Assembly: GCA_028705955.1 (NCBI GenBank)
Contig: JAQWCN010000001.1
Coordinates: 5,247-56,491 of the forward strand
Source: Eubacteriaceae bacterium
GTDB lineage: Bacteria > Bacillota > Clostridia > Eubacteriales > Eubacteriaceae
Direction: 5' to 3'
Length of the DNA stretch: 51,245 nt
A program made the translations under genes and the position numbers. Under the pieces are notes generated by a model, which saw only the letters and a program-made list of their open reading frames with translations, had not been told where the DNA came from and did no database searches. Positions 7,265 to 23,510 of this stretch are shown one piece after another. The number at the start of each line of letters is the position of its first letter. Positions within the stretch are counted from its first letter, which is position 1.

Positions 7265-8026
7265 TTATTTGAGGGTTAACGAAACCGGGCAGTGGTCGGA
7301 GCCCATAATATCACTGTGGATGGCCGCGTCGGCAATCAAATCTCTGGCGTTGTCAGAGGCAAAAAAGTAGTCAATGCGCCATCCCGCGTTGTTTTTCCGG
7401 GCATTAAAACGGTAGCTCCACCAGGAATAGGCCACGGTGTCAGGGTACAAAGCCCGGAAGGTATCGATGTAACCGGAGTCGAGGAATTGATCCATCCAGG
7501 CCCGTTCGATGGGCAAAAAGCCTGAGCGCTTGGCGTTGGATTTGGGATTTTTAAGATCGATTTCCCGGTGAGCGGTATTTACATCCCCGCAGACAATCAC
7601 ACGCTTGCCCTGGGCCACCAGCGCGTCCACATCTTTTTGAAAACAAGCGTAAAAATCCATTTTAAACCCAAGGCGTTCGTCATCCTTCTGCCCGTTGGGA
7701 AAATAGATATTAAAGAAGGTGAAATCCGGGTATTCCATAATGATGGTCCGGCCCTCATGGTTAAACCGCTCATCGGATAAACCGGTCCGGATGGAGAGGG
7801 GCTCCTGTTTGTAATAAACGGCGGTGCCGCTGTAACCTTTGCGTTCCGCCGGGTTAAAGAAAGCGTGATAGCCGTCGATGTTTTTAAGGCTGTCCTCAAG
7901 CTGGGAATCATCGGCCTTGACCTCCTGAATCCCCAGGATATCCGGCTGGGCGGACAGAACCCAGTCAATAAACCCTTTTTTTTGAGCGGCCCGGATGCCA
8001 TTGACGTTCCAGGAATATAATTGCAT
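7265..8026 (-). CDS. xth: Exodeoxyribonuclease III (AP endonuclease, EEP fold)
   Basis: The sequence MQLYSWNVNGIRAA...ILGIQEVK...GDVNTAHREIDL...SDHCPVSL matches Xth/ExoA. The start is placed at the second Met (nt 8026); the upstream extension in the ORF track is probably not translated. Confidence 0.9.
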   Translation of the reverse strand: MQLYSWNVNGIRAAQKKGFIDWVLSAQPDILGIQEVKADDSQLEDSLKNIDGYHAFFNPAERKGYSGTAVYYKQEPLSIRTGLSDERFNHEGRTIIMEYPDFTFFNIYFPNGQKDDERLGFKMDFYACFQKDVDALVAQGKRVIVCGDVNTAHREIDLKNPKSNAKRSGFLPIERAWMDQFLDSGYIDTFRALYPDTVAYSWWSYRFNARKNNAGWRIDYFFASDNARDLIADAAIHSDIMGSDHCPVSLTLK

Positions 8027-12607: not shown

Positions 12608-13657
12608 TTATCCGATATTGGACATGATACCCAAAAGGGGAAACATGACCGACAGCAAAATGAGTCCGACAATGATTGAAATGATGGCCACGAGGGTTGG
12701 TTCCAGAATCGACAGCATATGTTCGATGGCGTCGTCCACCTCGTCGCTGTAACGGACGGCGATCCGGTTCATGGCGTCGTCCATGTTGCCGGATTTATCC
12801 CCAATGGCCAGGATCCGGTCGTAGATTCCGGAAAAAAGCTTCGCCTGGTGTAAAGCTGCGGGAAAGGATTCCCCTTCGGTCATGGCCTGCCGGCAGCAGA
12901 CAATTTTTGCTTTAAGCACCGGATGATCGGTAATGCTGTCCACCAGATCCAGACATTGATCCGGATTTAAGCCGCTGGACAGGGTCATGGACAGGCCGTT
13001 GGCAAACCGGCTCAGGGCGATTTTTTCGTTCAGGCGCCGGGTCAGGGCAAAATGGACAATAAAATGGGAAAAGTGTTTCCGGCCTTTCTCCGTTTTGCTC
13101 AGGTAAAACAGCCCGCCGGCAAGCAGCGCGAGAATGGCGATAAAGACTGCAGCGTAACGGCTCATGACCGAGCCGGCATTCAAAACAGCTCCGGCAAACC
13201 CGGTCATCTCGGTCCCCAGCATGGTAAAAACCTGATTAAAAACCGGCATCACCTGGACCATCAGCACCACGATAATCACCACCATCATGCCGATCATGAT
13301 CAGGGGGTAGGTGACCGCGCTTTTAATGCCTTTGGCGATAGACTCTTCCCGGCTGTAGTAAACCGTCAAGGAATCCAGAACATCGTCGAGCTTGCCGGAA
13401 AGTTCCCCCAGACGAACCATCTCGATGAGGTAAGAGGGAAAGACTCCGGAAGTTTTGAGGGCTTCGGAAAACGGCAGCCCCGCCATCAGCCCCTCGCTGG
13501 TGGTCTGAAGAATGGACTGGGTGTCCGGATTTTTCATATCCTCCATCATAATCATAATGCCTTCATCGGTGGAGATCCCCGCTTTAATAATCATGGCCAT
13601 CTGGCTGCAGAACGCGGCGATTTCGGTATTGTTCAGCGGTGTCAATTTTGTTTTCAT
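12608..13657 (-). CDS. GspF/PilC-family type II secretion / type IV pilus platform protein
   Basis: The protein has two T2SSF repeats (AAFCSQMAMIIKAGIS...; FANGLSMTLSSGLNPDQCL...), each followed by TM segments. SD AAGGAG lies upstream; the start is ATG 13657 or TTG 13660. Confidence 0.85.
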   Translation of the reverse strand: MKTKLTPLNNTEIAAFCSQMAMIIKAGISTDEGIMIMMEDMKNPDTQSILQTTSEGLMAGLPFSEALKTSGVFPSYLIEMVRLGELSGKLDDVLDSLTVYYSREESIAKGIKSAVTYPLIMIGMMVVIIVVLMVQVMPVFNQVFTMLGTEMTGFAGAVLNAGSVMSRYAAVFIAILALLAGGLFYLSKTEKGRKHFSHFIVHFALTRRLNEKIALSRFANGLSMTLSSGLNPDQCLDLVDSITDHPVLKAKIVCCRQAMTEGESFPAALHQAKLFSGIYDRILAIGDKSGNMDDAMNRIAVRYSDEVDDAIEHMLSILEPTLVAIISIIVGLILLSVMFPLLGIMSNIG

Positions 13658-13675
13658 CAACGAGCTCCTTTTGTT

Positions 13676-14572
13676 CTAATAGACGTATTTTGTCTGATAA
13701 TTACTGCCGTCCCCGATGTATTCCTTGACGGATTCGTTGCCGTTGTTGGCGCCCAGAGTGGGATCCATCAGGGTCCAGGCCTTGCCGTCAAACTGAATGA
13801 CGCCGTTGATCCATCCGGATTCGTCGGTATAGACAGAAATCCACGCGTGGTAGAGGGAACCGGCGTAGCCCACTTCCAGCCGGGTGGGAATATTCTGGGA
13901 GCGGAGCATGGCGGCCATCAGGGCAGTGTAGTCAAAACAAATGCCTTTGCCGGAATCCAAAATTTCGTCCACATTGGGAAGATAGTCCGAAGTGACCGTC
14001 GCGGCCTCGCTGGAATCATAGGTAATATTTTTGGTGCCATAATCGTATACGTTTTTGACCACATCCAGATCCGAATCGGCATTGGCCGCCAGATCTTTTC
14101 CCTTGGCCACCGCTTTGGAGCTGGCGTTGAAATTGACGTATTGGCTCGGGTACAGGTAAGGGCCAAAGGCGTTGGCGATGGTTACCGCTACCGTTTGACT
14201 GAAGGCGGTGGTATACTGATTGTCGTAGGCATGTTCCAGGACGGTGAGGGTATAGTCTCCGCTGTCCCCGGTTAGGGGAAAGGCAGCCCAGTCAGTCCCG
14301 AGGTTGTAGGTGTATACCGTCCCCGATGGAACGGTAATCTGAAGTTTGACTTTATCCGAGGATCCGGTGTAGTGGACCATCACGTAACCCTGATCGCTGT
14401 GGGACGCGTCGATGACGGCGGAAGCGCTCTCGTAAGTGGTGGTGCCGTCAGCGGCGGGGGTGAGCACCTGGGGGGTATTGTCCCGGGTTCCTTTTTTGCC
14501 GCATCCGCTCAAAACCAGACAGCCTGCGAGTATTCCGATAAAAAAGAGAAAGACCCATTTCTTTCGCTTCAT
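13676..14572 (-). CDS. Transglutaminase-like (Cys-His-Asp) lipoprotein, first gene of the pilus-like operon
   Basis: A lipobox is present (LVLSGC). The transglutaminase core reads GKGICFDYTALMAAMLRSQNIPTRLEVGY...YHAWISVY...LMDPT. The stop is only 18 nt upstream of the gspF-like ATG. Confidence 0.8.
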   Translation of the reverse strand: MKRKKWVFLFFIGILAGCLVLSGCGKKGTRDNTPQVLTPAADGTTTYESASAVIDASHSDQGYVMVHYTGSSDKVKLQITVPSGTVYTYNLGTDWAAFPLTGDSGDYTLTVLEHAYDNQYTTAFSQTVAVTIANAFGPYLYPSQYVNFNASSKAVAKGKDLAANADSDLDVVKNVYDYGTKNITYDSSEAATVTSDYLPNVDEILDSGKGICFDYTALMAAMLRSQNIPTRLEVGYAGSLYHAWISVYTDESGWINGVIQFDGKAWTLMDPTLGANNGNESVKEYIGDGSNYQTKYVY

Positions 14573-14660
14573 GGCGTTGTCCTTTCAAGTTGCGTTGCGC
14601 ATAAAAATGATTTAAAATTATTATACCACACAGAGCGTGATTGCTCCAAAAACTTCTGGC

Positions 14661-14694
14661 GTGTGACTTTGGTGTGACACAAAGGGGGTATACT
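14661..14694 (+). promoter_or_regulatory. Activator-type promoter: direct repeats GTGTGAC-N4-GTGTGAC, then 10 nt, then TATACT
   Basis: The repeats start at 14661 and 14672 (11-bp period). The -10 TATACT lies at 14689-14694. There is no good -35 hexamer. The same layout recurs at 19043-19076. Confidence 0.65.
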
Positions 14695-14768
14695 CAATAC
14701 TAAAAGTGGTCTGGTAGCGGGATCAAAGCCCAGACAGAAATTTTCGGAACCGGAAAAGGAGCGGATTT

Positions 14769-15440
14769 ATGAAGAAAGAAACAAAGAAGATCATGATTCC
14801 ACTAACCATTGGGATCATATTGATCGCTTTGGCAGTGACTTTCGCAGCTTTCTATACATCGACAAAAACCCAGGAGGATGTGTCAACCACCGATTTGGGG
14901 ATTGAACTGGTGCAGACCGGCGGCAGCGGAGCGGTCACACTGGATACCAGCAGCAAGTACAGCGGCGGGTTTTCCTACACCGGAATGCCGGGAAGCGACC
15001 CCATCGATGAACAGGTAGCGGTTAAAAATACAGGCAGCAAGCCGGCTTATATCCGGGTGACCATCAACCGCAGCTGGAAAAAGGACGGGACCAAGGTGTC
15101 GGATGTGGATCCTCAGGAAATCGGCATCGTGACCAACAGCGGAGACTGGTACGTCGATACCGCAAGTGATAAAAATCACGAACAGGTGATCTGTTATTAT
15201 AAATATCCCTTAAAAAGCGGGGAACAAACCGCCAACGTGATGGACAGCTTTACCATCATGAAAGATCTGGCGGGTCAAAACAGCAACGCTTACTCCGGTC
15301 TGCAAAGCGAAATTGATTTTAAGGCAGAAGGCATTCAGACCACATCGGCGAAAGACGCCATGCTGGCAGAATGGGGTGTCAACGTCACAATGGACAGCAG
15401 CGGCACGATCACAGCCATGCCGGCAGAACAACAGGATTAA
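14769..15440 (+). CDS. TasA/camelysin/BsaA-like secreted matrix protein with SipW-type signal peptide
   Basis: The signal reads MKKETKKIMIPLTIGIILIALAVTFAAFYTSTKT, similar to the xxAYFTD-type SipW signal. The core motif is MPGSDPIDEQVAVKNTGSKPAYIRVTI. SD AAGGAG lies upstream. Confidence 0.65.
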   Translation: MKKETKKIMIPLTIGIILIALAVTFAAFYTSTKTQEDVSTTDLGIELVQTGGSGAVTLDTSSKYSGGFSYTGMPGSDPIDEQVAVKNTGSKPAYIRVTINRSWKKDGTKVSDVDPQEIGIVTNSGDWYVDTASDKNHEQVICYYKYPLKSGEQTANVMDSFTIMKDLAGQNSNAYSGLQSEIDFKAEGIQTTSAKDAMLAEWGVNVTMDSSGTITAMPAEQQD

Positions 15441-15458
15441 ACAGGGAGGAAAGAAACG

Positions 15459-16177
15459 TGAAAAAAACAATGACAGCCATCCTCGTTACGCTCCTGATGA
15501 TTTTTGGGCTGAGCGGACAGGCTCTGGCTGCAGACAGTTATGTTTTTGAAGGCGGTGCCAATGCGTTTGTCACCGACGTATCCGGCTCTGCCACCGGCGG
15601 ATTTACAGGAATGGAACCTGGGGAAACCCGGGATTTGACCTTAAGTTTAACCAACGGCGACAGTAAGGATGTCAACTTTTATATGAGTGCAGAGATTTTA
15701 AAAAATCTCGCCGAACAAGGGGATCAAAATGCCGTATACACCTTTACGATCAGCAAAAACGGAACTCCCTTCTTTGAAACGGTCATCGGCGGAGGCAGCG
15801 ACAGCCAGAACATTTCCATCGGTGCGGAATATTTAAAAGAGGATAATACGATTCTGCTGGATACCATGGCTCCGGGCCAGAAGGATACCATTACCGTTAC
15901 ACTGGCTTTGGACGGGGATTCTGCAGAAAATGTGTACATGAACCAGAATGGTAAAATTCAGCTGGTGTTTAGTGCCGGGTCGCCGGTGACCAACGAACCG
16001 GGAACCGTCATCAACCGCATTGTCCGCACCATCACCGGACAAAGCAGCACCTCGCCGGATACCGGGGTTCAGGCGGGTGACATCCTGCTGCTTGTGGCAT
16101 TTGCAGCGGTGATCGCCGGAATCATTCTCGCCATAATTCTATTGAGAAAAAAACATAAGGAGGGAAAACAGTCATGA
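15459..16177 (+). CDS. Secreted surface protein with C-terminal sortase-type sorting signal (SPDTG + TM + basic tail)
   Basis: A GTG start follows SD GGGAGGAAA. The Sec signal is ...GQALA/ADSY. A TasA-like strand motif is present (MEPGETRDLTLSLTNGDSKDVNFYM). The C-terminus reads SPDTGVQAGDILLLVAFAAVIAGIILAIILLRKKHKEGKQS. Confidence 0.7.
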
Positions 16178-17094
16178 AAACCGCACAGCGTCACTTGAGT
16201 TTTGGGTGGGCCGGACTGCTTGTCCTGACCATTGCGCTTTTCTGTTTTTCAGCCGCTCCCGTCCAGGCCGCAGACAGTTATCAAATCAGCTTTAAAGGTG
16301 GATCCCACGGGACCATCAGTTATAATGAAACCAACGAAGGGGTCAGTTACGACATCGAGGTTCCTTATCAAAGCAGTCTGGACACGAGTCAGGTCCGGGT
16401 GGTGCCGGAAGACGGCTGGTACTGTACCGGCTGGAGTCCGGAAGTGGAAAGTCCGGTGACTGAAAAAGCGACCTACGTGGCCCAGTATAAACGCATCATT
16501 GACGAAGCGGTGTATCGCGTGAATTACGTGGATACCTCCGGCAATGCCCTGGCGACCCAGGCGATCCGTAAAACCAACGCGGGAGTGGATGTGACCGAAT
16601 ACGCCGTTCCGGTGGACGGATACGCCGTGGACAGTGCTTCCAAAACGGCGACAGTGGCAAAAGAAGGAACCGAAATTACCTTCACCTATCAGTCCGCCCA
16701 GGAACCCAGTGTGGTTGACCAGGTGGAAAACGTCGTGATTCCCGGGGGAACGACCATCGCCACAACCGGCGGGGTAACGGCAGGAACCACTGCTGCAGGG
16801 AATGGGGCCAATGCCGTCACCGCAGGCGGTACCGGGACAGCCGGTAATGCGGCTGCCGGCAATGCCGGAACCGACGGAGCGGCCGCGGCGGATGGCACGA
16901 CTGACGGAACAGTTAATCAGCAGGGGCAGACCACCACGGTTGACGATAATAATGTGCCTTTGGCCAATCAGCAGGTCGGGGATCAAAAACAGATGCCAAC
17001 CTGGGGCTACATTGCGATCATTGCAGGAGCAGCGCTCATTGCCGGAAGCCTGATCACGTTACTGGTGAAGCGCCGGAAGAAAAAACAGCATTAA
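16174..17094 (+). CDS. Secreted, C-terminally membrane-anchored surface protein with MucBP-like repeat and Gly/Ala/Thr-rich stalk
   Basis: The signal is ...APVQA/ADSY. A MucBP-like block is present (YRVNYVDTSGNALATQ...EITFTYQ), followed by a low-complexity stalk (TAGTTAAGNGANAVTAGGTG...). The C-terminal TM is followed by KRRKKKQH. The start overlaps the upstream stop (ATGA). Confidence 0.65.
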   Translation: MKTAQRHLSFGWAGLLVLTIALFCFSAAPVQAADSYQISFKGGSHGTISYNETNEGVSYDIEVPYQSSLDTSQVRVVPEDGWYCTGWSPEVESPVTEKATYVAQYKRIIDEAVYRVNYVDTSGNALATQAIRKTNAGVDVTEYAVPVDGYAVDSASKTATVAKEGTEITFTYQSAQEPSVVDQVENVVIPGGTTIATTGGVTAGTTAAGNGANAVTAGGTGTAGNAAAGNAGTDGAAAADGTTDGTVNQQGQTTTVDDNNVPLANQQVGDQKQMPTWGYIAIIAGAALIAGSLITLLVKRRKKKQH

Positions 17095-17117
17095 ATCATC
17101 AATAAAAGAGAAAACTT

Positions 17118-17166
17118 AAAGAAGTCTGGGAACCGCTGTCAACGGGGCCTGGACTTCTTTGTTTTT
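17118..17166 (+). terminator. Intrinsic terminator of the TasA-like operon
   Basis: AAAGAAGTCTGGG...CCTGGACTTCTTT forms a 13-bp stem with two G-U pairs, followed by GTTTTT. Confidence 0.6.
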
Positions 17167-17176
17167 CATCAAAGAC

Positions 17177-17205
17177 TTGTCAAGAAAACGCGTAAACGGT
17201 ATAAT
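17177..17205 (+). promoter_or_regulatory. SigA-type promoter of the SARP/BTAD regulator gene
   Basis: TTGTCA, a 17-nt spacer, then TATAAT. Its position means the TTG-initiated 5' part of the tracked ORF is not translated. Confidence 0.7.
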
Positions 17206-17233
17206 AAAATCATTATATTATAATGGAAAAATA

Positions 17234-18493
17234 ATGGAAAAAGAAATACAGGATTTGGAATGGGAGCGGCACAATATGGAAATGAATGACAAGAAAAATA
17301 CGGGGTTGACCGTTAAAACCCTCGGTGGATTTTCCATTCAGGGAATGGGTGGCCACTTAAAGGAAGACGGGATACGCTCGGAAATGCTCATCAAATTGAT
17401 GGCTTACATTTTCTGCCACCACACTCAGGAAATGACGGTCCAGGAGCTGACCGATGTCCTCTGGACAGAAGAAGGCAGTGATAATCCGGCGGGAGCACTC
17501 AAAAATTTAATGTACCGGTTGCGGCTGCTGCTTAAAAAAACCTGGGGCCCCCATGATTTTATTTTAACCGGTCAGGGCGCCTACAGCTGGAATAAGGAAA
17601 TCCCCCTTGACATTGACGCGGAGGATTTCGACAAAGGCTGTAAACAGGCATCCCGGGAGCAGGATACAAATCAGAAAATTGAAGATTTAAAACAAGCACT
17701 GAGTTATTATCAGGGCACCTTTCTTCCCAAATTTTCCAGTGAATATTGGATCATGGCGCTCAGTACCTATTACCAGGGGACCTATTTGAGCGCGGTCAAA
17801 ACACTGGCTGATCTGCTGGGAAAAGAACAGCGCTATAAAGAAATGGCCCGGTGGTGCACAGTCGCCCTGCAGTACGAGCCGCTGGATGAGGACATCCATA
17901 CCGATTTGATCAAAGCCCTCATCGGCCAGAATAAGCTTAAAATGGCTATGGATCATTATAAAGAGACGGAAGCCCTGCTTTATGAAAATTTGGGGGTAGC
18001 CCCCTCGGATGAATTGCGGCGGACTTACGAAGCCCTTTTGAAAGAAACCAACAGTCAGCAGATGGATTTAAAAGCCATCGAGGAAGAACTGACAGAGAAT
18101 AACGAGAGCGGTGCTTTCCTGTGTGATTTTGGGGTGTTTAAAAAAACGTATAATCTCGAAATGCGCCGGGCTGCCCGCCTGGGGCTTTCCGTATTTGTCG
18201 TTTTGATTACGGTGGGGCCGGCCGGAAAGATGACGGTAGCCAGCCCAAACTATCTCGAAGTGATTAATGATGGCATGGACCGGCTGGAACGTGTTTTACT
18301 GGGGTGTTTGCGTTCCGGGGATGTCATTTCCAGATACAGTGGTGCCCAGTTTATTATTTTGCTGCCGACGTGTCAGTACGAGACCACCAAAATGGTTATT
18401 CAGCGTATCGAAGACAATTTTTACGAAACTGGGGACAAGCAGATTCCCAAGGTTAAACTGCATTACAGTCTTGACGAAATGGACGAAAAATAA
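17234..18493 (+). CDS. SARP/BTAD-family transcriptional activator fused to a degenerate GGDEF domain (RxxD I-site retained)
   Basis: The N-terminus has an OmpR-like winged helix (LTVKTLGGFSIQ...). The BTAD region reads LSYYQGTFLP...ALQYEPLDEDIHTDLIKAL...AMDHYKETEALLYENLGVAPSDELRRTYEALL. The C-terminus reads RSGDVISRYSGAQFIILLP, where an active domain has RxxD-xxx-RxGG(D/E)EF. The start is uncertain (17234 or 17276). Confidence 0.75.
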   Translation: MEKEIQDLEWERHNMEMNDKKNTGLTVKTLGGFSIQGMGGHLKEDGIRSEMLIKLMAYIFCHHTQEMTVQELTDVLWTEEGSDNPAGALKNLMYRLRLLLKKTWGPHDFILTGQGAYSWNKEIPLDIDAEDFDKGCKQASREQDTNQKIEDLKQALSYYQGTFLPKFSSEYWIMALSTYYQGTYLSAVKTLADLLGKEQRYKEMARWCTVALQYEPLDEDIHTDLIKALIGQNKLKMAMDHYKETEALLYENLGVAPSDELRRTYEALLKETNSQQMDLKAIEEELTENNESGAFLCDFGVFKKTYNLEMRRAARLGLSVFVVLITVGPAGKMTVASPNYLEVINDGMDRLERVLLGCLRSGDVISRYSGAQFIILLPTCQYETTKMVIQRIEDNFYETGDKQIPKVKLHYSLDEMDEK

Positions 18494-18524
18494 GGAAAAG
18501 ATCCATATCATTCAGGAGGGCAAT

Positions 18525-18965
18525 ATGACATTTGCAGATAATTGTATCAGAGTGTGCGTCGATCAGGCGGACGATGACCATTTTACCGGAACGCTGTACG
18601 GGGTGGCATTGCAGCAACCGATTCCCTTTTGCAACCGGATGGATTTTGTGGTTAAGGTGGACAAGGCTTTTGACCGGATCGGCAAGCCCCAGTCCGGTCA
18701 GGTGATCCGGTCCTTTACCGGAAACGGCGCCGCCGGCAGTTCTTATTGCGGCAGCCCGAAACATTATCATACGTCAGAATCCCTGGTTGATAAATCCGGC
18801 AGTGCAGGGACGTTTGGTTTAACGATGCTGACCCGACGCCGGGCTGAGTGGCAGGGACGGCTGACAGATGGACAGGGACGGCTGTTGGGGTTCTTTGAAA
18901 CGGCCATGGAATGTGTCACCCTGATCACCCGGGCCACAAACGCTAAAAAAGAAGCAGAACGTTGA
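18525..18965 (+). CDS. Hypothetical 146-aa cytoplasmic protein, co-transcribed with the SARP regulator
   Basis: An ATG follows the strong SD AGGAGGG, 32 nt after the regulator's stop. There is no TM or signal peptide and I recognise no family. The longer ORF-track version (18267..) lies out of frame inside the regulator gene. Confidence 0.55.
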   Translation: MTFADNCIRVCVDQADDDHFTGTLYGVALQQPIPFCNRMDFVVKVDKAFDRIGKPQSGQVIRSFTGNGAAGSSYCGSPKHYHTSESLVDKSGSAGTFGLTMLTRRRAEWQGRLTDGQGRLLGFFETAMECVTLITRATNAKKEAER

Positions 18966-18969
18966 CAGC

Positions 18970-19016
18970 AGCCGGATCTAAAACCTGTAACGGGGAAGGA
19001 AATCCGGCTTTTTTTA
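18970..19016 (+). terminator. Intrinsic terminator after the regulator/orphan pair
   Basis: AGCCGGAT...ATCCGGCT stem followed by TTTTTTT. Confidence 0.65.
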
Positions 19017-19042
19017 TTTAAAAAAGGACTCAGAATAAGAGG

Positions 19043-19076
19043 GTGTGACTGGGATGTGACTGCCGCCTGTTATCAT
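19043..19076 (+). promoter_or_regulatory. Activator-type promoter of the adhesin gene: GTGTGAC-N4-ATGTGAC, then 10 nt, then TATCAT
   Basis: The repeats start at 19043 and 19054 (11-bp period). The -10 TATCAT lies at 19071-19076. The geometry is identical to 14661-14694. Confidence 0.65.
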
Positions 19077-19201
19077 ATCCAGTAAAGGTGACAAAGCATA
19101 TCATTCTGCCCGGATTTTGAAAAACAAAGATCGGAAACAAAAAAGCATCCGGCAGAAAAAACCAATAAACGCCAGGGCGCAATCCGTGAAAGGAGTCAAA
19201 C

Positions 19202-22200
19202 ATGAACGCAGCAATCTATCAAAAAAGAATCATTCAGATCATCGGAGGACTGATGATAGCTCTCGTGGCTATGATTGGTTTGACGAATCCTGTATGGGCC
19301 GAGGATACGGCTCCCCGCACGACGGTTCAGGAAAACGGGGCTGAGGTCGTTCGTTTTGACTACAAGAGCAGTGATGTAAATGTGCTGGTCACATTGACCA
19401 ATGCCAGCGATCTGCCGGACAACGCAGTGATGTCCGTGACACCGGTAAGCCTTGACAATCAGGAAAAGGGCAAGGTTGAAGAAAAAGCCAAGGAAGAAAG
19501 CAAAGATGTCAAAAGCACCAAGGCCTACGATATCAAATTTACGGTAGACGGCAAAGAAGTGGAACCCGGAGCGACCGTTAAAGTCGCCGTCACAACGCCC
19601 CAGGTACAGGCGGGGGAAAAAGCAGCGGTTTATCATGTGAGTGATGACAAAAATTCGGTGGACAACATGGATGCCAACACTTCGGATCAGGGTCAGGTTG
19701 ATTTTAATACCAATCATTTTTCCCGGTACGTCATTATCAATTACAGCCCCAATCCGGTTAACGTGACCATTCAGAGATATTATTACAGCGATGGTGACAG
19801 CACCAATACCGCAGACAGCAATTTACAGATGATTTATAAATCCTCCAAAACCATCAAAGCTCAGGAAGACGGCAAAACCTACCAGCTCAGCGGAGTGGAT
19901 TACAATCAGGATAACTACACGTTTGTCAAAGCCACAAAGACGACAACCGTGAATGGCGAACAGAAGACGGAGGATTTCAGCCCCAGTGATCTGGTGGTAA
20001 CAGGAGACACGACGATCTCGGTGTATTACACGAGGGCGGAAGCCACAAAAAGCGGGGATACCACCTTTTATGATTACAGCATTCAAAAAGGAATCAATCA
20101 GGCCGCCAACTACAGCAATTATACGAATAACCGGGAAGAAACAAGCGCCAAAAAAAATGCCCGGATTGCCATCCACAGTTCATGGACCGGGACCAATGTA
20201 TACAGTCCGTTAAATGGAACGGCTCAGAGCATCAACGGGTATGACGGTGGCCATGACCGGGATTTATATTCCATCAAGCAGGGCATCGTCGTCGGTACGG
20301 ACAGCAGCGGGGCCGTGGTCTACGGTAAAAACACAAGCGGCACAACCCTTTCTGATCCGGGACTCTTTACGACAGACACCAAAAGCGGTAAGACCATCAT
20401 GGATGATTACCAGCTGACCTTCAAGCAGACTGGTGACGATTATCATCTGAGCACCGTTAACTGTAAAGACACGACGCATAACACCCAGGTTCAAAACGCG
20501 GGCAGCAATTTCCTGCCACTCAATAACGACACCAGAAAATTAACAGAAAACAACAACAACAGCGGTACAGATTTCTATTTTGGCATGCGTTACGATGTCG
20601 ATTTTACCCTGGGCGATTACGTTGGTCCCCTGAACTATTCCTTCACCGGGGATGATGACTTGTGGGTTATCCTGGACGGCAAAACGGTTTTGGATATGGG
20701 CGGTATCCACGGCGCTGTTAAAGGCAGTGTCAATTTATGGACCGGTGACGCCACTTACACCGGCTATCAAAGTCATTCGACGGTTGAATCCGGAACTAAA
20801 ACCCTTTCGGGGGAAGACGGTTTGTACGATCTTTTGGGGATCACCGATCCGTCCCAGCTGACCGATGCGCAAAAGAGTCAGAAACACACCATTACCATTC
20901 TCTACATGGAACGGGGCGCCGGAGAATCCAACTGTAACATGAACTTTACCCTGCCCAATGCAAAAGTAACGGAAGTCACCCAGGTTCCAAAGGGAGACTT
21001 AACCTTTAATAAAGTGGGCAAGGTTGAAACAACCGATGCGGGAACGCCTCTAGCGGACGCGACCTTTACCATTGCCAAAAAAGATACACCGGATGCAATC
21101 ATTGCCACCGCGACATCGGACGACAGCGGGACAGTGACTTTCCCGAATCTGGAAGTGGGCGAGTACGTCGTTAAGGAAGAAACCGCTCCGACCGGTTACG
21201 CCTGTGCCAACCAGACCTTTTACGTTCAGGTCACATTGAACGAAGACGGCACAACGGCGACAGCAAAGATGTATTCGGACGAAAAATATACCCAGGAAGT
21301 GACCCAGGTGGACAACTATGAAATCAACAGCCATCTGCTTCAGCAAAAAACGGCCCACGTCACCGACTGGGATAACCGGATTTACCAAATCGATTTGTAC
21401 ACATCCCAGACCGTTCCGGTTCTGAAAGAAATTAGCGGAGCCACCATTGTGGATACCATCGATTCCCGGTTTGATGTGGTGGATAAAGACGGCAACCAGC
21501 TGGCCGACGGCACCGCAGTGGATGGCGGAACCCTTAAATACAACGAACCCGGGGAAGCCTATATCATCTGGGGAAGCCAGGTCATTCCAGGGAATAACGA
21601 TGTGACCCAGGGTTGGCACAAAACCCTTTACGTTAAAGCCAAAGCCGACTATATCGGCGGCAACAACGTGCCGACCAATGTCGAATCCAAATCCGGGATT
21701 ACGGTCAGCGGGATCACCAAAAACTTTGACAATCCAAAGGTCAATGTCAAGGCCCGGTTTGCGATGAGCAACGTGACCAAAACGGTTTTCCTCGGGGACA
21801 CCGTCGACAATCAGGATTCCCAAAATGCGATGCTGACCACGGCCGGAATCAAAGATATGATTGGCGGATCTTACCAAAGCATTACCGCAGCGGCGGATAA
21901 ACTCGCCACCCAGTGGTTTACAAAAGAAGCGATGGGCAGCGGGGATCAGACAACCGTGAATCAAATGCCGGCCAACCCGACGGAAGAAGAAACCGTCTGG
22001 TATCTCAAAGCCACCTACAATTTAGGACAGGCGACAGAAGAAAGTACAAAGAATACGACCATAAACAATAAAGGTTATATTTCCGGTGACGCGACAGCCA
22101 ATGGCGTGGACAGTTTTGTTACAGGCGCCAATGATGACCAAATGGTGCGCAACGGGGTCACGACGACGTCAGAACCCAGCGTTAAAGGAAAAGAATACGG

Positions 22201-22729
22201 AGTGTATACTGTCCATGTGGTCCGGGGACAACTGATGATTACCAAGACCATTGACAATCAGTACTCCACCATCCGCAAAATCAATGCAAATCAAACTTTT
22301 GTGTTTAAGGTCGAACGCTACGACATGGACGCAAAAGGGGAAAAAGTGGGGGATACCCCAACCGACACTTTCTACGAAACCATCAACTTTGACGCCAACG
22401 CCGGAACCACAACCAGCAGCAAACTGATTTCCAACTTGAAAGCCGGTTTTTACACCGTCACCGAAGAAACAAAGTGGTCGCCGAAATACGTGATCGATGG
22501 CAGCACACCGGTTTCCCAGAGCTACTCCATCGGCATTGTCCAATCGACAGATGACAAAGGCGTGCGTACTTTTAACGGTTTGGAAGACATGAACAAGAAT
22601 CTGAAAGCAACCAACAAGTATGGAAAAGTTGCGGAAGGCAAACATTGTACCACTACCTACATGAATAAACGGACCGACTGGAACTGGCTCTCAGATACAG
22701 CCGCGGCGGTGAATGAATTTGTAAAATAA
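19202..22729 (+). CDS. Large secreted adhesin: fibro-slime/PA14-like domain plus SpaA/Cna-B-type prealbumin-fold domains; no C-terminal anchor
   Basis: The Sec signal is ...TNPVWA/EDT. The fibro-slime/PA14 signature reads GTDFYFGMRYDVDFTL...FTGDDDLWVILDGKTVLDMGGIHG. A Cna-B/SpaA-like block reads LTFNKVGK...ATFTIAKK...GTVTFPNLEVGEYVVKEETAPTGY. The C-terminus has pilin-like beta domains (GQLMITKTI...FVFKVERYD...GFYTVTEE). SD AAAGGAG lies upstream. Confidence 0.8.
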   Translation: MNAAIYQKRIIQIIGGLMIALVAMIGLTNPVWAEDTAPRTTVQENGAEVVRFDYKSSDVNVLVTLTNASDLPDNAVMSVTPVSLDNQEKGKVEEKAKEESKDVKSTKAYDIKFTVDGKEVEPGATVKVAVTTPQVQAGEKAAVYHVSDDKNSVDNMDANTSDQGQVDFNTNHFSRYVIINYSPNPVNVTIQRYYYSDGDSTNTADSNLQMIYKSSKTIKAQEDGKTYQLSGVDYNQDNYTFVKATKTTTVNGEQKTEDFSPSDLVVTGDTTISVYYTRAEATKSGDTTFYDYSIQKGINQAANYSNYTNNREETSAKKNARIAIHSSWTGTNVYSPLNGTAQSINGYDGGHDRDLYSIKQGIVVGTDSSGAVVYGKNTSGTTLSDPGLFTTDTKSGKTIMDDYQLTFKQTGDDYHLSTVNCKDTTHNTQVQNAGSNFLPLNNDTRKLTENNNNSGTDFYFGMRYDVDFTLGDYVGPLNYSFTGDDDLWVILDGKTVLDMGGIHGAVKGSVNLWTGDATYTGYQSHSTVESGTKTLSGEDGLYDLLGITDPSQLTDAQKSQKHTITILYMERGAGESNCNMNFTLPNAKVTEVTQVPKGDLTFNKVGKVETTDAGTPLADATFTIAKKDTPDAIIATATSDDSGTVTFPNLEVGEYVVKEETAPTGYACANQTFYVQVTLNEDGTTATAKMYSDEKYTQEVTQVDNYEINSHLLQQKTAHVTDWDNRIYQIDLYTSQTVPVLKEISGATIVDTIDSRFDVVDKDGNQLADGTAVDGGTLKYNEPGEAYIIWGSQVIPGNNDVTQGWHKTLYVKAKADYIGGNNVPTNVESKSGITVSGITKNFDNPKVNVKARFAMSNVTKTVFLGDTVDNQDSQNAMLTTAGIKDMIGGSYQSITAAADKLATQWFTKEAMGSGDQTTVNQMPANPTEEETVWYLKATYNLGQATEESTKNTTINNKGYISGDATANGVDSFVTGANDDQMVRNGVTTTSEPSVKGKEYGVYTVHVVRGQLMITKTIDNQYSTIRKINANQTFVFKVERYDMDAKGEKVGDTPTDTFYETINFDANAGTTTSSKLISNLKAGFYTVTEETKWSPKYVIDGSTPVSQSYSIGIVQSTDDKGVRTFNGLEDMNKNLKATNKYGKVAEGKHCTTTYMNKRTDWNWLSDTAAAVNEFVK

Positions 22730-22747
22730 AAGCGTTTGAACAACAAG

Positions 22748-22787
22748 AGGCCAGGGAGGGACGACAGTCCAGCCCTGGCCTTTTTAA
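22748..22787 (+). terminator. Intrinsic terminator of the adhesin gene
   Basis: AGGCCAGGG...CCCTGGCCT hairpin followed by TTTTT. Confidence 0.75.
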
Positions 22788-22899
22788 TGGAGCAATGGGC
22801 GCTTTTTATAAGGAATCGGTGAGTGTAAAATGTCAGGATAGATACAATAAAAAATTGAAGAAGGAAATTTCTCCATGGTGCAGGGCTTTGAAAATACAA

Positions 22900-22955
22900 A
22901 GAACCCCTTGTCATCGACAGCCTCAACGGAAGCGGTCACGATGACAAGGGGTTCT
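22900..22955 (-). terminator. Long-stem hairpin / probable terminator of the micropeptide operon
   Basis: A perfect 17-bp stem (AGAACCCCTTGTCATCG / CGATGACAAGGGGTTCT) encloses a 22-nt loop. On the minus strand it is followed by TTGTATTTTC. It begins 17 nt after the stop of micropeptide 1. Confidence 0.55.
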
Positions 22956-22971
22956 GTTTATAAAAAATCAC

Positions 22972-23055
22972 TTATTTTTCAGCTTTTAAAGCATCCAATT
23001 CAGCCTTGAGTTCTGCGATCTGTTTTAATAATTCATCATAAGGGTTAAAGTTCAT
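22972..23055 (-). CDS. Micropeptide 1 (27 aa): MNFNPYDELLKQIAELKAELDALKAEK
   Basis: Found by manual translation because it is below the ORF-track size cutoff. SD AAAGGAGA lies 7 nt before the ATG and the stop is TAA. It is paralogous to the two ORFs upstream. Confidence 0.6.
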   Translation of the reverse strand: MNFNPYDELLKQIAELKAELDALKAEK

Positions 23056-23123
23056 GTTTATTTCTCCTTTGTTTTTATATTTTGATACGAATTAAATTCT
23101 TTTATGGAATCAGATAAGTTCAA

Positions 23124-23207
23124 TTATCTGGATGCTTTCATGGATTCAACTTCAGCTTTGAGTTCCTGAATTTGTTTTAAAATTTCATTCATTGCATTGT
23201 AGCCCAT
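23124..23207 (-). CDS. Micropeptide 2 (27 aa): MGYNAMNEILKQIQELKAEVESMKASR
   Basis: Found by manual translation. SD AAAGGAGA lies 7 nt before the ATG and the stop is TAA. It shares the xYNxxxElLkqIqELKaEl core with its neighbours. Confidence 0.6.
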   Translation of the reverse strand: MGYNAMNEILKQIQELKAEVESMKASR

Positions 23208-23284
23208 TGAGTTTTCTCCTTTCTGTTTTACTTTCATTATAAGAGTTATCCGATATCCGGATGGATTTACACGTTAAAAACGGT

Positions 23285-23365
23285 TCAGGCGTTTTTCAGT
23301 GAAGCAAGTTCAGATTTTAATTCCTGGATTTCCTGGAGCAATACTTCGTATGGATTGTAATTCAT
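23285..23365 (-). CDS. Micropeptide 3 (26 aa): MNYNPYEVLLQEIQELKSELASLKNA
   Basis: Found by manual translation. SD AAAGGAGA lies 7 nt before the ATG and the stop is TGA. It shares 15 of 26 residues with micropeptide 1, although many codons differ synonymously. Confidence 0.6.
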   Translation of the reverse strand: MNYNPYEVLLQEIQELKSELASLKNA

Positions 23366-23510
23366 AGTGCGTCTCCTTTCTTTCAATGGCGGATCCAATC
23401 GGATTCGCAATGTCTGTAGGAACAAGATAAAAACAAATGATTAAATATACAATAAATGTAATAATTTCAAGATCAGCAAGTTGTTTCATTTGTTTTCATC
23501 TATGTGTAAT

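Follow-up and report, generated by a model that had tools for sequence, protein, structure and literature searches.

What controls the gene for a 1175-amino-acid (aa) secreted protein whose predicted promoter consists of two direct repeats and a -10 hexamer, with no clear -35 hexamer? The question is raised by positions 19043-19076 of a 51,245-nucleotide (nt) stretch from an Eubacteriaceae bacterium (assembly GCA_028705955.1, contig JAQWCN010000001.1), referred to here as the window. An element of the same build lies at 14661-14694, in front of the three-gene mat operon (mat1, mat2 and mat3), and a regulator gene and a small partner gene are situated between this operon and the 1175-aa gene (Table 1). 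The repeat pairs are termed box 1 (site 1, mat operon) and box 2 (site 2, 1175-aa gene); the words "adhesin" for the 1175-aa protein and "matrix" for the mat operon are labels based on domains only. The comparisons presented below make it likely that 19043-19076 is a sigma-A promoter of the adhesin gene activated by the SARP protein encoded next to it, and that the transcription units behind box 1 and box 2 form one regulon.

The two elements share a strict layout. Direct reading bears out the initial annotation, in which both were described as two heptamers 4 nt apart, followed after 10 nt by a -10 hexamer (7-4-7-10-6), with 13 of the 14 repeat positions in agreement. The TGTGAC cores start at 14662 and 14673 in site 1 and at 19044 and 19055 in site 2, and the exact composite TGTGAC-N5-TGTGAC is found only at these two sites within the window, against about 0.006 copies expected (2 x 51245 x 4^-12), in line with the earlier claim that such a pair is unlikely to arise by chance. 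Single GTGTGAC heptamers are not enriched, with 5 found and 3.9 expected in the window, nor is the composite pattern when two mismatches are permitted. A 36-column weight matrix built from foreign sites only scored box 2 at 32.2 bits and box 1 at 28.4 bits, compared with 25.8-44.4 bits for the training sites and a best score of 10.6 over 20 shuffles, and nothing else in the window exceeded 8 bits. The DNA flanking the two sites is unrelated in sequence, so the sites are not copies of one duplicated segment, and a local DNA duplication is ruled out.

Conservation of the element was examined in related loci. A single-protein search of the GTDB species representatives with the regulator returned no close relative, and an alignment-based search provided 78 loci from other species (1.18 Mb in total, 37-58% identity to the regulator). 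These loci span the Eubacteriaceae (Eubacterium barkeri, E. aggregans, E. callanderi and E. limosum), the Lachnospiraceae (Blautia, Roseburia, Agathobacter, Acetatifactor, Robinsoniella and Lactonifactor), Clostridium paraputrificum and the Erysipelotrichaceae. On the regulator's strand, they contain 122 exact copies of TGTGAC-N5-TGTGAC (120 unique sequences), where about 0.07 would be expected. When one mismatch was tolerated and a minimal -10 was required, 161 boxes lay on the regulator's strand versus 1 on the opposite strand. The -10 was not part of the exact-box search; in the 120 sites it is located at an offset of exactly 10 nt, with T in 93%, A in 100%, T in 91%, A in 93%, any base, and T in 100%. 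The TG extension of the -10 (T in 64%, G in 45%) is present in about half of the box promoters. Constraint extends to the base that follows each hexamer, which is Y after the first TGTGAC and T or A after the second. The heptamer as originally drawn did not stand up to this comparison, whereas its core did: the conserved unit is TGTGAC together with the following Y or W.

The position of the boxes is conserved along with their sequence. Of 39 loci with a mat1 homolog, 38 have a box less than 400 nt upstream of it, and 54 of 75 loci have one no more than 1.3 kb downstream of the regulator/partner pair; the syntenic order is transglutaminase gene (minus strand), box, mat1-3, regulator, partner, box and large secreted protein. 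When the spacers between partner and adhesin genes from 10 genomes were aligned, only TGTGAC, TGTGAC and TG-n-TA---T were invariant, and the rest had drifted. The footprinting test proposed with the initial annotation, which looked for heptamers and spacing kept while flanking sequence drifts, was therefore positive both in the 78 loci and in the 10-genome spacer alignment. A box at both promoters, conserved at both orthologous positions, also supports the predicted union of matrix operon and adhesin in one regulon. No response-regulator gene was detected within the conserved synteny; among DNA-binding genes, the SARP gene alone accompanies the boxes, across Lachnospiraceae, Eubacteriaceae, Clostridiaceae, Erysipelotrichaceae and Oscillospiraceae.

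Examination of the promoters with standard sigma-A expectations gave little upstream of the -10. At spacers of 16, 17 and 18 nt, TTGACA is matched at 1, 0 and 0 of 6 positions in site 1 and at 3, 0 and 0 of 6 in site 2, and a consensus promoter scan of the window called neither box promoter with its conserved -10. For site 1, the scan offered GTGACA-16-AATACT, which was rejected in favor of the TATAnT exactly 10 nt 3' of the box that is conserved in the 120 sites. The -10 of site 1 has no TG extension. Two further features recur in box promoters: a conserved T-A-n-A-n-A about 6-11 nt 3' of the -10 (window positions 14701-14706 and 19083-19088; +38 to +43 in the alignment), which may reflect a start-site preference, and an A-rich tract 10-14 nt 5' of the box, which may be UP-element-like.

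A scan independent of the regulator was run over 185,579 species genomes with the query TGTGACY-N3-RTGTGAC-N10-TATAAT and matched at least 120 stretches, against about 4 expected under uniform base composition. Among the matches listed, nearly all are Clostridia, with exceptions that include a thaumarchaeote, an Acidobacteriota genome and a Bacteroidales genome, and Oscillospiraceae and Acutalibacteraceae are added to the hosts. Homologs of cluster genes occur in 72 of the 120 8-kb stretches among the matches listed. The first open reading frame (ORF) after the box in these listed matches mostly encodes a secreted protein, either a TasA-like protein of about 215 aa, a protein of 600-1700 aa or a SipW-type peptidase, and members of the partner family are also found. 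Since box-preceded genes occur beyond the cluster in the matches listed, the regulon reaches past the cluster in relatives. SipW-type signal peptidase genes (…SGSMEPTY) stand behind a box in loci L146 (6307) and L190 (2300); L146 shares its goat-ileum metagenome-assembled genome with L001, which together with one other locus is the closest to the window regulator. The presence of SipW genes under the same box supports a predicted TasA/SipW-like fibre system.

The regulator itself is a SARP by both sequence profile and predicted fold, which upholds the earlier description of the gene between the two sites. A Pfam scan of the window protein at E<=0.01 returned BTAD (PF03704, 4.2e-20, 73 bits versus a cut-off of 22.1) and, in part, GGDEF. 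A profile built from 24 members of the family matched the SARP domain of AfsR (8hvr, 6.6e-8, AfsR residues 71-284) and EmbR (2fez) and, separately, GGDEF domains. The AlphaFold2 model, with a predicted local distance difference test score (pLDDT) of 85.7, comprises a winged helix, a helical BTAD and an alpha/beta C-terminal domain. In Foldseek it was matched best by AfsR from the Streptomyces transcription initiation complex (8k60 and 8hvr, E about 1e-11, TM 0.73-0.75), superposed with a root-mean-square deviation of 3.7-3.9 Å over about 254 columns, followed by EmbR and then by GGDEF domains. The winged-helix assignment is based on the profile, the AlphaFold2 model and Pfam hits to PF00486 precomputed in many regulator homologs. 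With a near-consensus promoter of its own that carries no box, the regulator in this genome is probably not autoregulated at the level of transcription. The annotated ATG at 17234 leaves a leader of only about 22 nt with no clear ribosome-binding site, and on these grounds the true start may be ATG 17273 or 17279, the two Met codons of "HNMEMNDKK".

The C-terminal domain of the regulator (window 18101-18490, residues 290-419) resembles a GGDEF domain in which RSGD aligns with the RxxD motif and SGAQF with GGEEF/GGDEF. The Mg-binding Asp of the "vDl" strand is replaced, the downstream Arg is aligned, and R360, D363, S369, Q372 and R391 are invariant across the regulator family. As judged from SGAQF in place of GG(D/E)EF and from the loss of the Mg-binding Asp, the domain is catalytically dead and not a diguanylate cyclase. 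The RxxD I-site residues are those that bind cyclic di-GMP (c-di-GMP) in I-site receptors, among them PelD and PopA, degenerate-GGDEF receptors that bind c-di-GMP via this site. Like PelD and PopA, the regulator family has lost the active-site motif and has an invariant RxxD, 5-residue linker and downstream Arg; unlike in these proteins, the GGDEF-like domain has a shorter length of about 125 aa, is joined to a SARP domain and is a putative ligand binder. The domain is accordingly described here as a candidate receptor for a nucleotide second messenger fused to the SARP domain, and c-di-GMP is put forward as its possible signal, with a probability somewhat below even.

These features can be arranged into a mechanism modeled on characterized SARPs. 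In published SARP promoters, the direct repeats follow each other at 11 or 22 bp, the -10 lies 8 bp from the 3' repeat, and the -35 is poor (PMC10936776). Cryo-electron microscopy places two SARP protomers side by side on the afs box, a 22-bp element with its center at -29.5, and in the resulting "sigma adaptation" the SARP provides another surface on which sigma region 4 and further parts of the polymerase can dock (PMC10936776). At site 2, two protomers of the neighboring SARP would line up side by side and head to tail on the two TGTGAC repeats, forming a dimer along a single face of the DNA. The dimer, at 19043-19064, would cover approximately -40 to -19 and recruit the sigma-A holoenzyme to the extended -10, supplying polymerase contacts in place of the missing -35 in an AfsR-like "sigma adaptation". 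With a start 7 nt 3' of the -10, the repeats make up a 22-bp unit (R-TGTGAC-Y-nnn / R-TGTGAC-W-nnn) that would extend from -40 to -19 and be centered at -29.5. The same action at 14661-14694 would drive the three-gene operon for secreted and cell-wall-anchored proteins. As the regulator has its own strong, box-free promoter, control would probably be exerted on the activity of the protein, through the GGDEF-like domain, the partner protein or both.

Comparison with the Streptomyces systems reveals both likeness and divergence. The box promoters resemble those served by AfsR (the afs box of afsS) and the heptamer promoters of ActII-ORF4 and DnrI in that their -35 is poor and is overlapped or replaced by repeats with an 11-bp period, and in that the 3' repeat keeps a constant, short distance to the -10, which is 9-10 nt here instead of 8. 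The agreement of the 22-bp box with the afs box, both centered at about -29.5, applies only if the start lies at the predicted 7 nt after the -10. The regulator resembles AfsR in combining an OmpR-type winged helix with a BTAD, and its predicted model superposes on AfsR of the initiation complex. Unlike the Streptomyces SARPs, it occurs in Clostridia, is associated with a TGTGAC(Y/W) repeat rather than the TCGAGxx or GTTCAxx types, is linked to genes for secreted and surface proteins rather than to antibiotic clusters, and is accompanied by a conserved small partner gene. Its predicted C-terminal degenerate GGDEF-like domain stands where Streptomyces SARPs have NOD/TPR domains or nothing. EmbR of Mycobacterium tuberculosis, which was also a structural hit, has a comparable arrangement, in which a SARP-type winged helix and a BTAD precede a C-terminal domain that reads a signal, although the added domain of EmbR is an FHA domain that reads phosphothreonine, whereas the one here is GGDEF-like.

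Several points weigh against SARP-activated promoters as the explanation of the two sites. The 78 loci were chosen solely for encoding a relative of the regulator, which partly builds in the observed linkage, and the genome scan offsets this selection only in part. A box is missing after the regulator/partner pair in 21 of 75 loci and eight loci have no box at all; a search of the loci free of TGTGAC boxes for an alternative direct-repeat box covarying with the regulator gave nothing convincing. Among the stretches listed from the scan, 48 of 120 have no cluster gene within 8 kb. At the promoters, the gap to the -10 is 10 nt after TGTGAC, or 9 nt after TGTGAC+W, not the 8 of SARP promoters, and the TATCAT of site 2 is a weaker -10 than most orthologs have. 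The Pfam scan of the window regulator at E<=0.01 did not return the Trans_reg_C winged-helix model, and the supplements of a published E. limosum primary-transcriptome paper contained no promoter sequences to match.

The box could be a genuine activator site bound by another protein, either an OmpR/PhoB-type response regulator encoded elsewhere or the partner, in which case the SARP-like protein would act differently or on other targets. We consider this unlikely. The pho box of Escherichia coli PhoB is made of two 11-bp units (7 conserved and 4 variable positions), lies 10 nt 5' of the -10, replaces the -35, and is occupied head-to-tail by two winged helices in contact with sigma region 4. 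The pho box shares the 7+4+7 layout and the 10-nt distance to the -10, an arrangement that could suit any tandem winged-helix binder and that agrees with the OmpR/PhoB-type winged helix of SARPs. The regulator differs from PhoB in having neither a receiver domain nor a linked histidine kinase, in its BTAD fusion and in its consensus. The 48 stretches mentioned above have no regulator within 8 kb, and the partner has a confident but unassigned fold with faint, non-significant PUR-repeat-like hits, both of which leave some room for a different protein at the box. Yet the conserved synteny revealed no response-regulator gene, the SARP gene alone travels with the boxes, and the boxes share its strand 161 to 1; SARP domains, furthermore, are known to bind exactly such sites (PMC10936776).

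The direction of control was considered as well. Were the repeats a repressor operator, a protein at -40 to -19 would block polymerase at an extended -10 promoter, which suits the overlap of the box with the polymerase footprint and the TGn carried by site 2 and its orthologs, an extended -10 being able to work without a -35. We regard this as quite improbable, for the TG is found in only about half of the box promoters, and site 1, without TG and without -35, should need an activator. In 120 sites the -10 keeps a distance of exactly 10 nt, a rigid phasing of the sort typically seen with activators in contact with polymerase, and the characterized BTAD/SARP proteins are activators (PMC10936776). 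Finally, the notion that the likeness of the two sites is chance or a functionless residue of local duplication, for which the near-expected count of single heptamers and the unenriched two-mismatch pattern could be cited, has a negligible probability given an exact composite present twice against about 0.006 expected, unrelated flanks, a foreign weight matrix that picks only these two sites, and a motif kept at orthologous positions in dozens of species. Activation by the neighboring SARP thus remains the preferred account of both promoters, and we infer physical binding of the boxes by this protein.

Table 1. Features of the box-associated cluster in the window (positions of the window; strand as indicated)
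Feature	Position	Strand	Description
Transglutaminase-like protein gene	13676-14572	-	Divergent from the box 1 promoter; Pfam Transglut_core 2.3e-19
Box 1	14661-14678	+	GTGTGAC (14661-14667)-tttg-GTGTGAC (14672-14678), direct repeats at 11-bp period
-10 of mat operon promoter	14689-14694	+	TATACT, 10 nt (acaaaggggg) 3' of box 1
mat1	14769-15440	+	Secreted 223-aa protein, TasA-like signal peptide
mat2	15458-16177	+	Secreted; C-terminal SPDTG, membrane helix and basic tail (sortase-type sorting signal)
mat3	16174-17094	+	Secreted; C-terminal membrane anchor, weak MucBP-like region
Terminator-like hairpin and T-run after mat3	17119-17166	+	AAGAAGTCTGGG...CCTGGACTTCTT TGTTTTT, read from sequence
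Promoter of the regulator	17177-17205	+	TTGTCA-17-TATAAT, near-consensus sigma-A type, 11/12 matches, box-free
Regulator	17234-18493	+	Winged helix about 25-127, BTAD 128-275, degenerate GGDEF-like domain 295-415
Partner gene	18525-18965	+	146-aa protein of a conserved unannotated family of about 145 aa
Hairpin (18970-19009) and T-run (to 19016)	18970-19016	+	Terminator-like, after the regulator/partner pair
Box 2	19043-19060	+	GTGTGAC (19043-19049)-tggg (19050-19053)-ATGTGAC (19054-19060), direct repeats at 11-bp period
Spacer from box 2 to -10	19061-19070	+	tgccgcctgt
Extended -10 of site 2	19068-19076	+	TG-t-TATCAT; hexamer 19071-19076, 10 nt 3' of box 2; TG at 19068-19069
Predicted 5' leader of adhesin mRNA	19083-19201	+	About 119 nt; ribosome-binding site AAAGGAG near 19189; start inferred from the -10
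Putative adhesin gene	19202-22729	+	1175-aa secreted protein; signal peptide, fibro-slime domain, SpaA-type prealbumin-fold domain

The second gene of the regulator pair was labeled an orphan in the initial annotation, a description that had to be abandoned. A homolog adjoins the regulator in about 60 loci, and 428 homologs are found in databases, all named "hypothetical" and without a Pfam family. A single-sequence database search with the partner returned itself only, and no match was obtained against Pfam, NCBIfam or PDB sequences. The AlphaFold2 model of the partner (pLDDT 85.9, predicted TM-score 0.79) consists of two beta-beta-beta-alpha modules. A comparison of this fold with the PDB gave no significant match, and the hits to Pur-alpha and SRP9/14, with E of about 1, were disregarded. 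In Blautia-type loci (L009, L011, L013, L014, L016, L018, L056 and others), the partner gene is located 5' of the regulator. One of these, L011, carries at 7463-7764 a variant box, TATGAC-N5-TGTGAC, inside the 3' end of the partner gene, followed by a 72-aa ORF, and the 72-aa ORF of Blautia-type loci resembles one partner module (HTWQG...FRSALELIKLI). A variant box driving such a single-module paralog hints at a feedback loop.

The genes behind and beside box 1 encode predicted surface-associated proteins. Mat1 matches TIGR04090, which models SipW-dependent matrix proteins of the BsaA family, only weakly and below threshold (21.6 bits versus a cut-off of 60); in many genomes its homologs are found 3' of the box. 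Read from ATG 15371, the longest mat2 ORF overlaps mat1 by 70 nt, and GTG 15458 has a GGGAGG ribosome-binding site upstream and a typical signal peptide (KKTMTAILVTLLMIFGLSGQALA) downstream; mat2 probably starts at GTG 15458 instead of ATG 15371. Both mat2 and mat3 have homologs in related loci. In more than 30 related loci, a homolog of the transglutaminase-like gene keeps synteny with the cluster, and the protein might participate in cross-linking or processing of surface proteins. Just upstream of the cluster, a gene with a T2SSF match (1e-47), for a type II secretion or type IV pilus platform protein, occupies 12608-13660 on the minus strand.

With TasA/SipW of Bacillus subtilis and BsaA/SipW of Clostridium perfringens, mat1 shares a small secreted product, a TasA-like signal peptide and the weak TIGR04090 match, and the same box precedes SipW-type signal peptidase genes in relatives. 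The resemblance has limits: the mat1 score is well short of the cut-off given above, no sipW gene is present in the window, and the TasA operon of Bacillus is regulated by SinR/SlrR, not by a SARP.

The 1175-aa protein matches Pfam SpaA (3e-17) and the TIGR02148 fibro-slime domain (2e-12), no LPXTG motif is present in it, and its homologs sit 3' of the box in relatives. Box 2 begins 27 nt 3' of the end of the T-run at 19016, exactly as the initial annotation had placed it relative to the regulator/partner terminator. The hairpin of this terminator, at -16.7 kcal/mol with a long loop and a z of only -1.6, is weak evidence taken alone. The predicted 5' untranslated region of about 120 nt agrees with the sequence: the distance to ATG 19202 would be about 119 nt if transcription starts approximately 7 nt 3' of the -10, near 19083. 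Folding of this 119-nt leader revealed nothing unusual (z of -1.1), and Rfam covariance models at E<=1 had no match over 14000-23500, so no riboswitch is present in either leader. Several relatives have two or three box promoters in an array 3' of the adhesin gene, at intervals of 100-800 bp: L005 (16889 and 16990), L007 (15200, 16003 and 16759) and L044 (15064, 15199 and 15333). These arrays suggest families of small box-driven genes.

A search of a limited literature collection found no description of this regulator type, motif or system, and no paper in that collection on a SARP/BTAD regulator with GGDEF or c-di-GMP, or on one in Firmicutes, Lachnospiraceae or TasA-SipW contexts. The box is a genuine promoter signal with wide conservation and most likely a docking site of the neighboring SARP, and it marks a previously undescribed surface-protein regulon common to many gut Clostridia. 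SARPs are known as actinobacterial activators of antibiotic clusters, and the same promoter logic, a tandem pair of repeats spaced by one turn of the helix and phased with a -10 that has no -35, appears here in at least five families of Clostridia. Many of the carriers are dominant gut commensals, and the genes fronted by the boxes encode secreted fibres, proteins anchored in the cell wall and surface proteins of very large size. TGTGAC-Y-N3-R-TGTGAC-N10-TAtAnT provides a highly specific motif with which surface and biofilm regulons can be predicted from genomes and metagenomes, and the locus yields a candidate master regulator with a likely nucleotide-sensing domain, together with an unannotated family of partner proteins. 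Tractable relatives that possess the system include Eubacterium limosum and E. callanderi, Clostridium paraputrificum and Blautia.

A broader proposal, speculative and at present rather doubtful, is that a large Clostridial family, combining a SARP with a GGDEF-like domain that retains only the I-site and always accompanied by a two-module partner of about 145 aa, acts as second-messenger receptors that switch on the TGTGAC-N5-TGTGAC regulon by AfsR-style "sigma adaptation". If true, the regulon would comprise TasA-like fibres, sortase substrates, SipW peptidases and giant adhesins, and its signal would be c-di-GMP or a related nucleotide. It would be the first SARP mechanism described outside Actinobacteria, and would constitute a master switch of surface and biofilm functions in gut Blautia, Roseburia, Agathobacter, Eubacterium, Erysipelotrichaceae and Oscillospiraceae.

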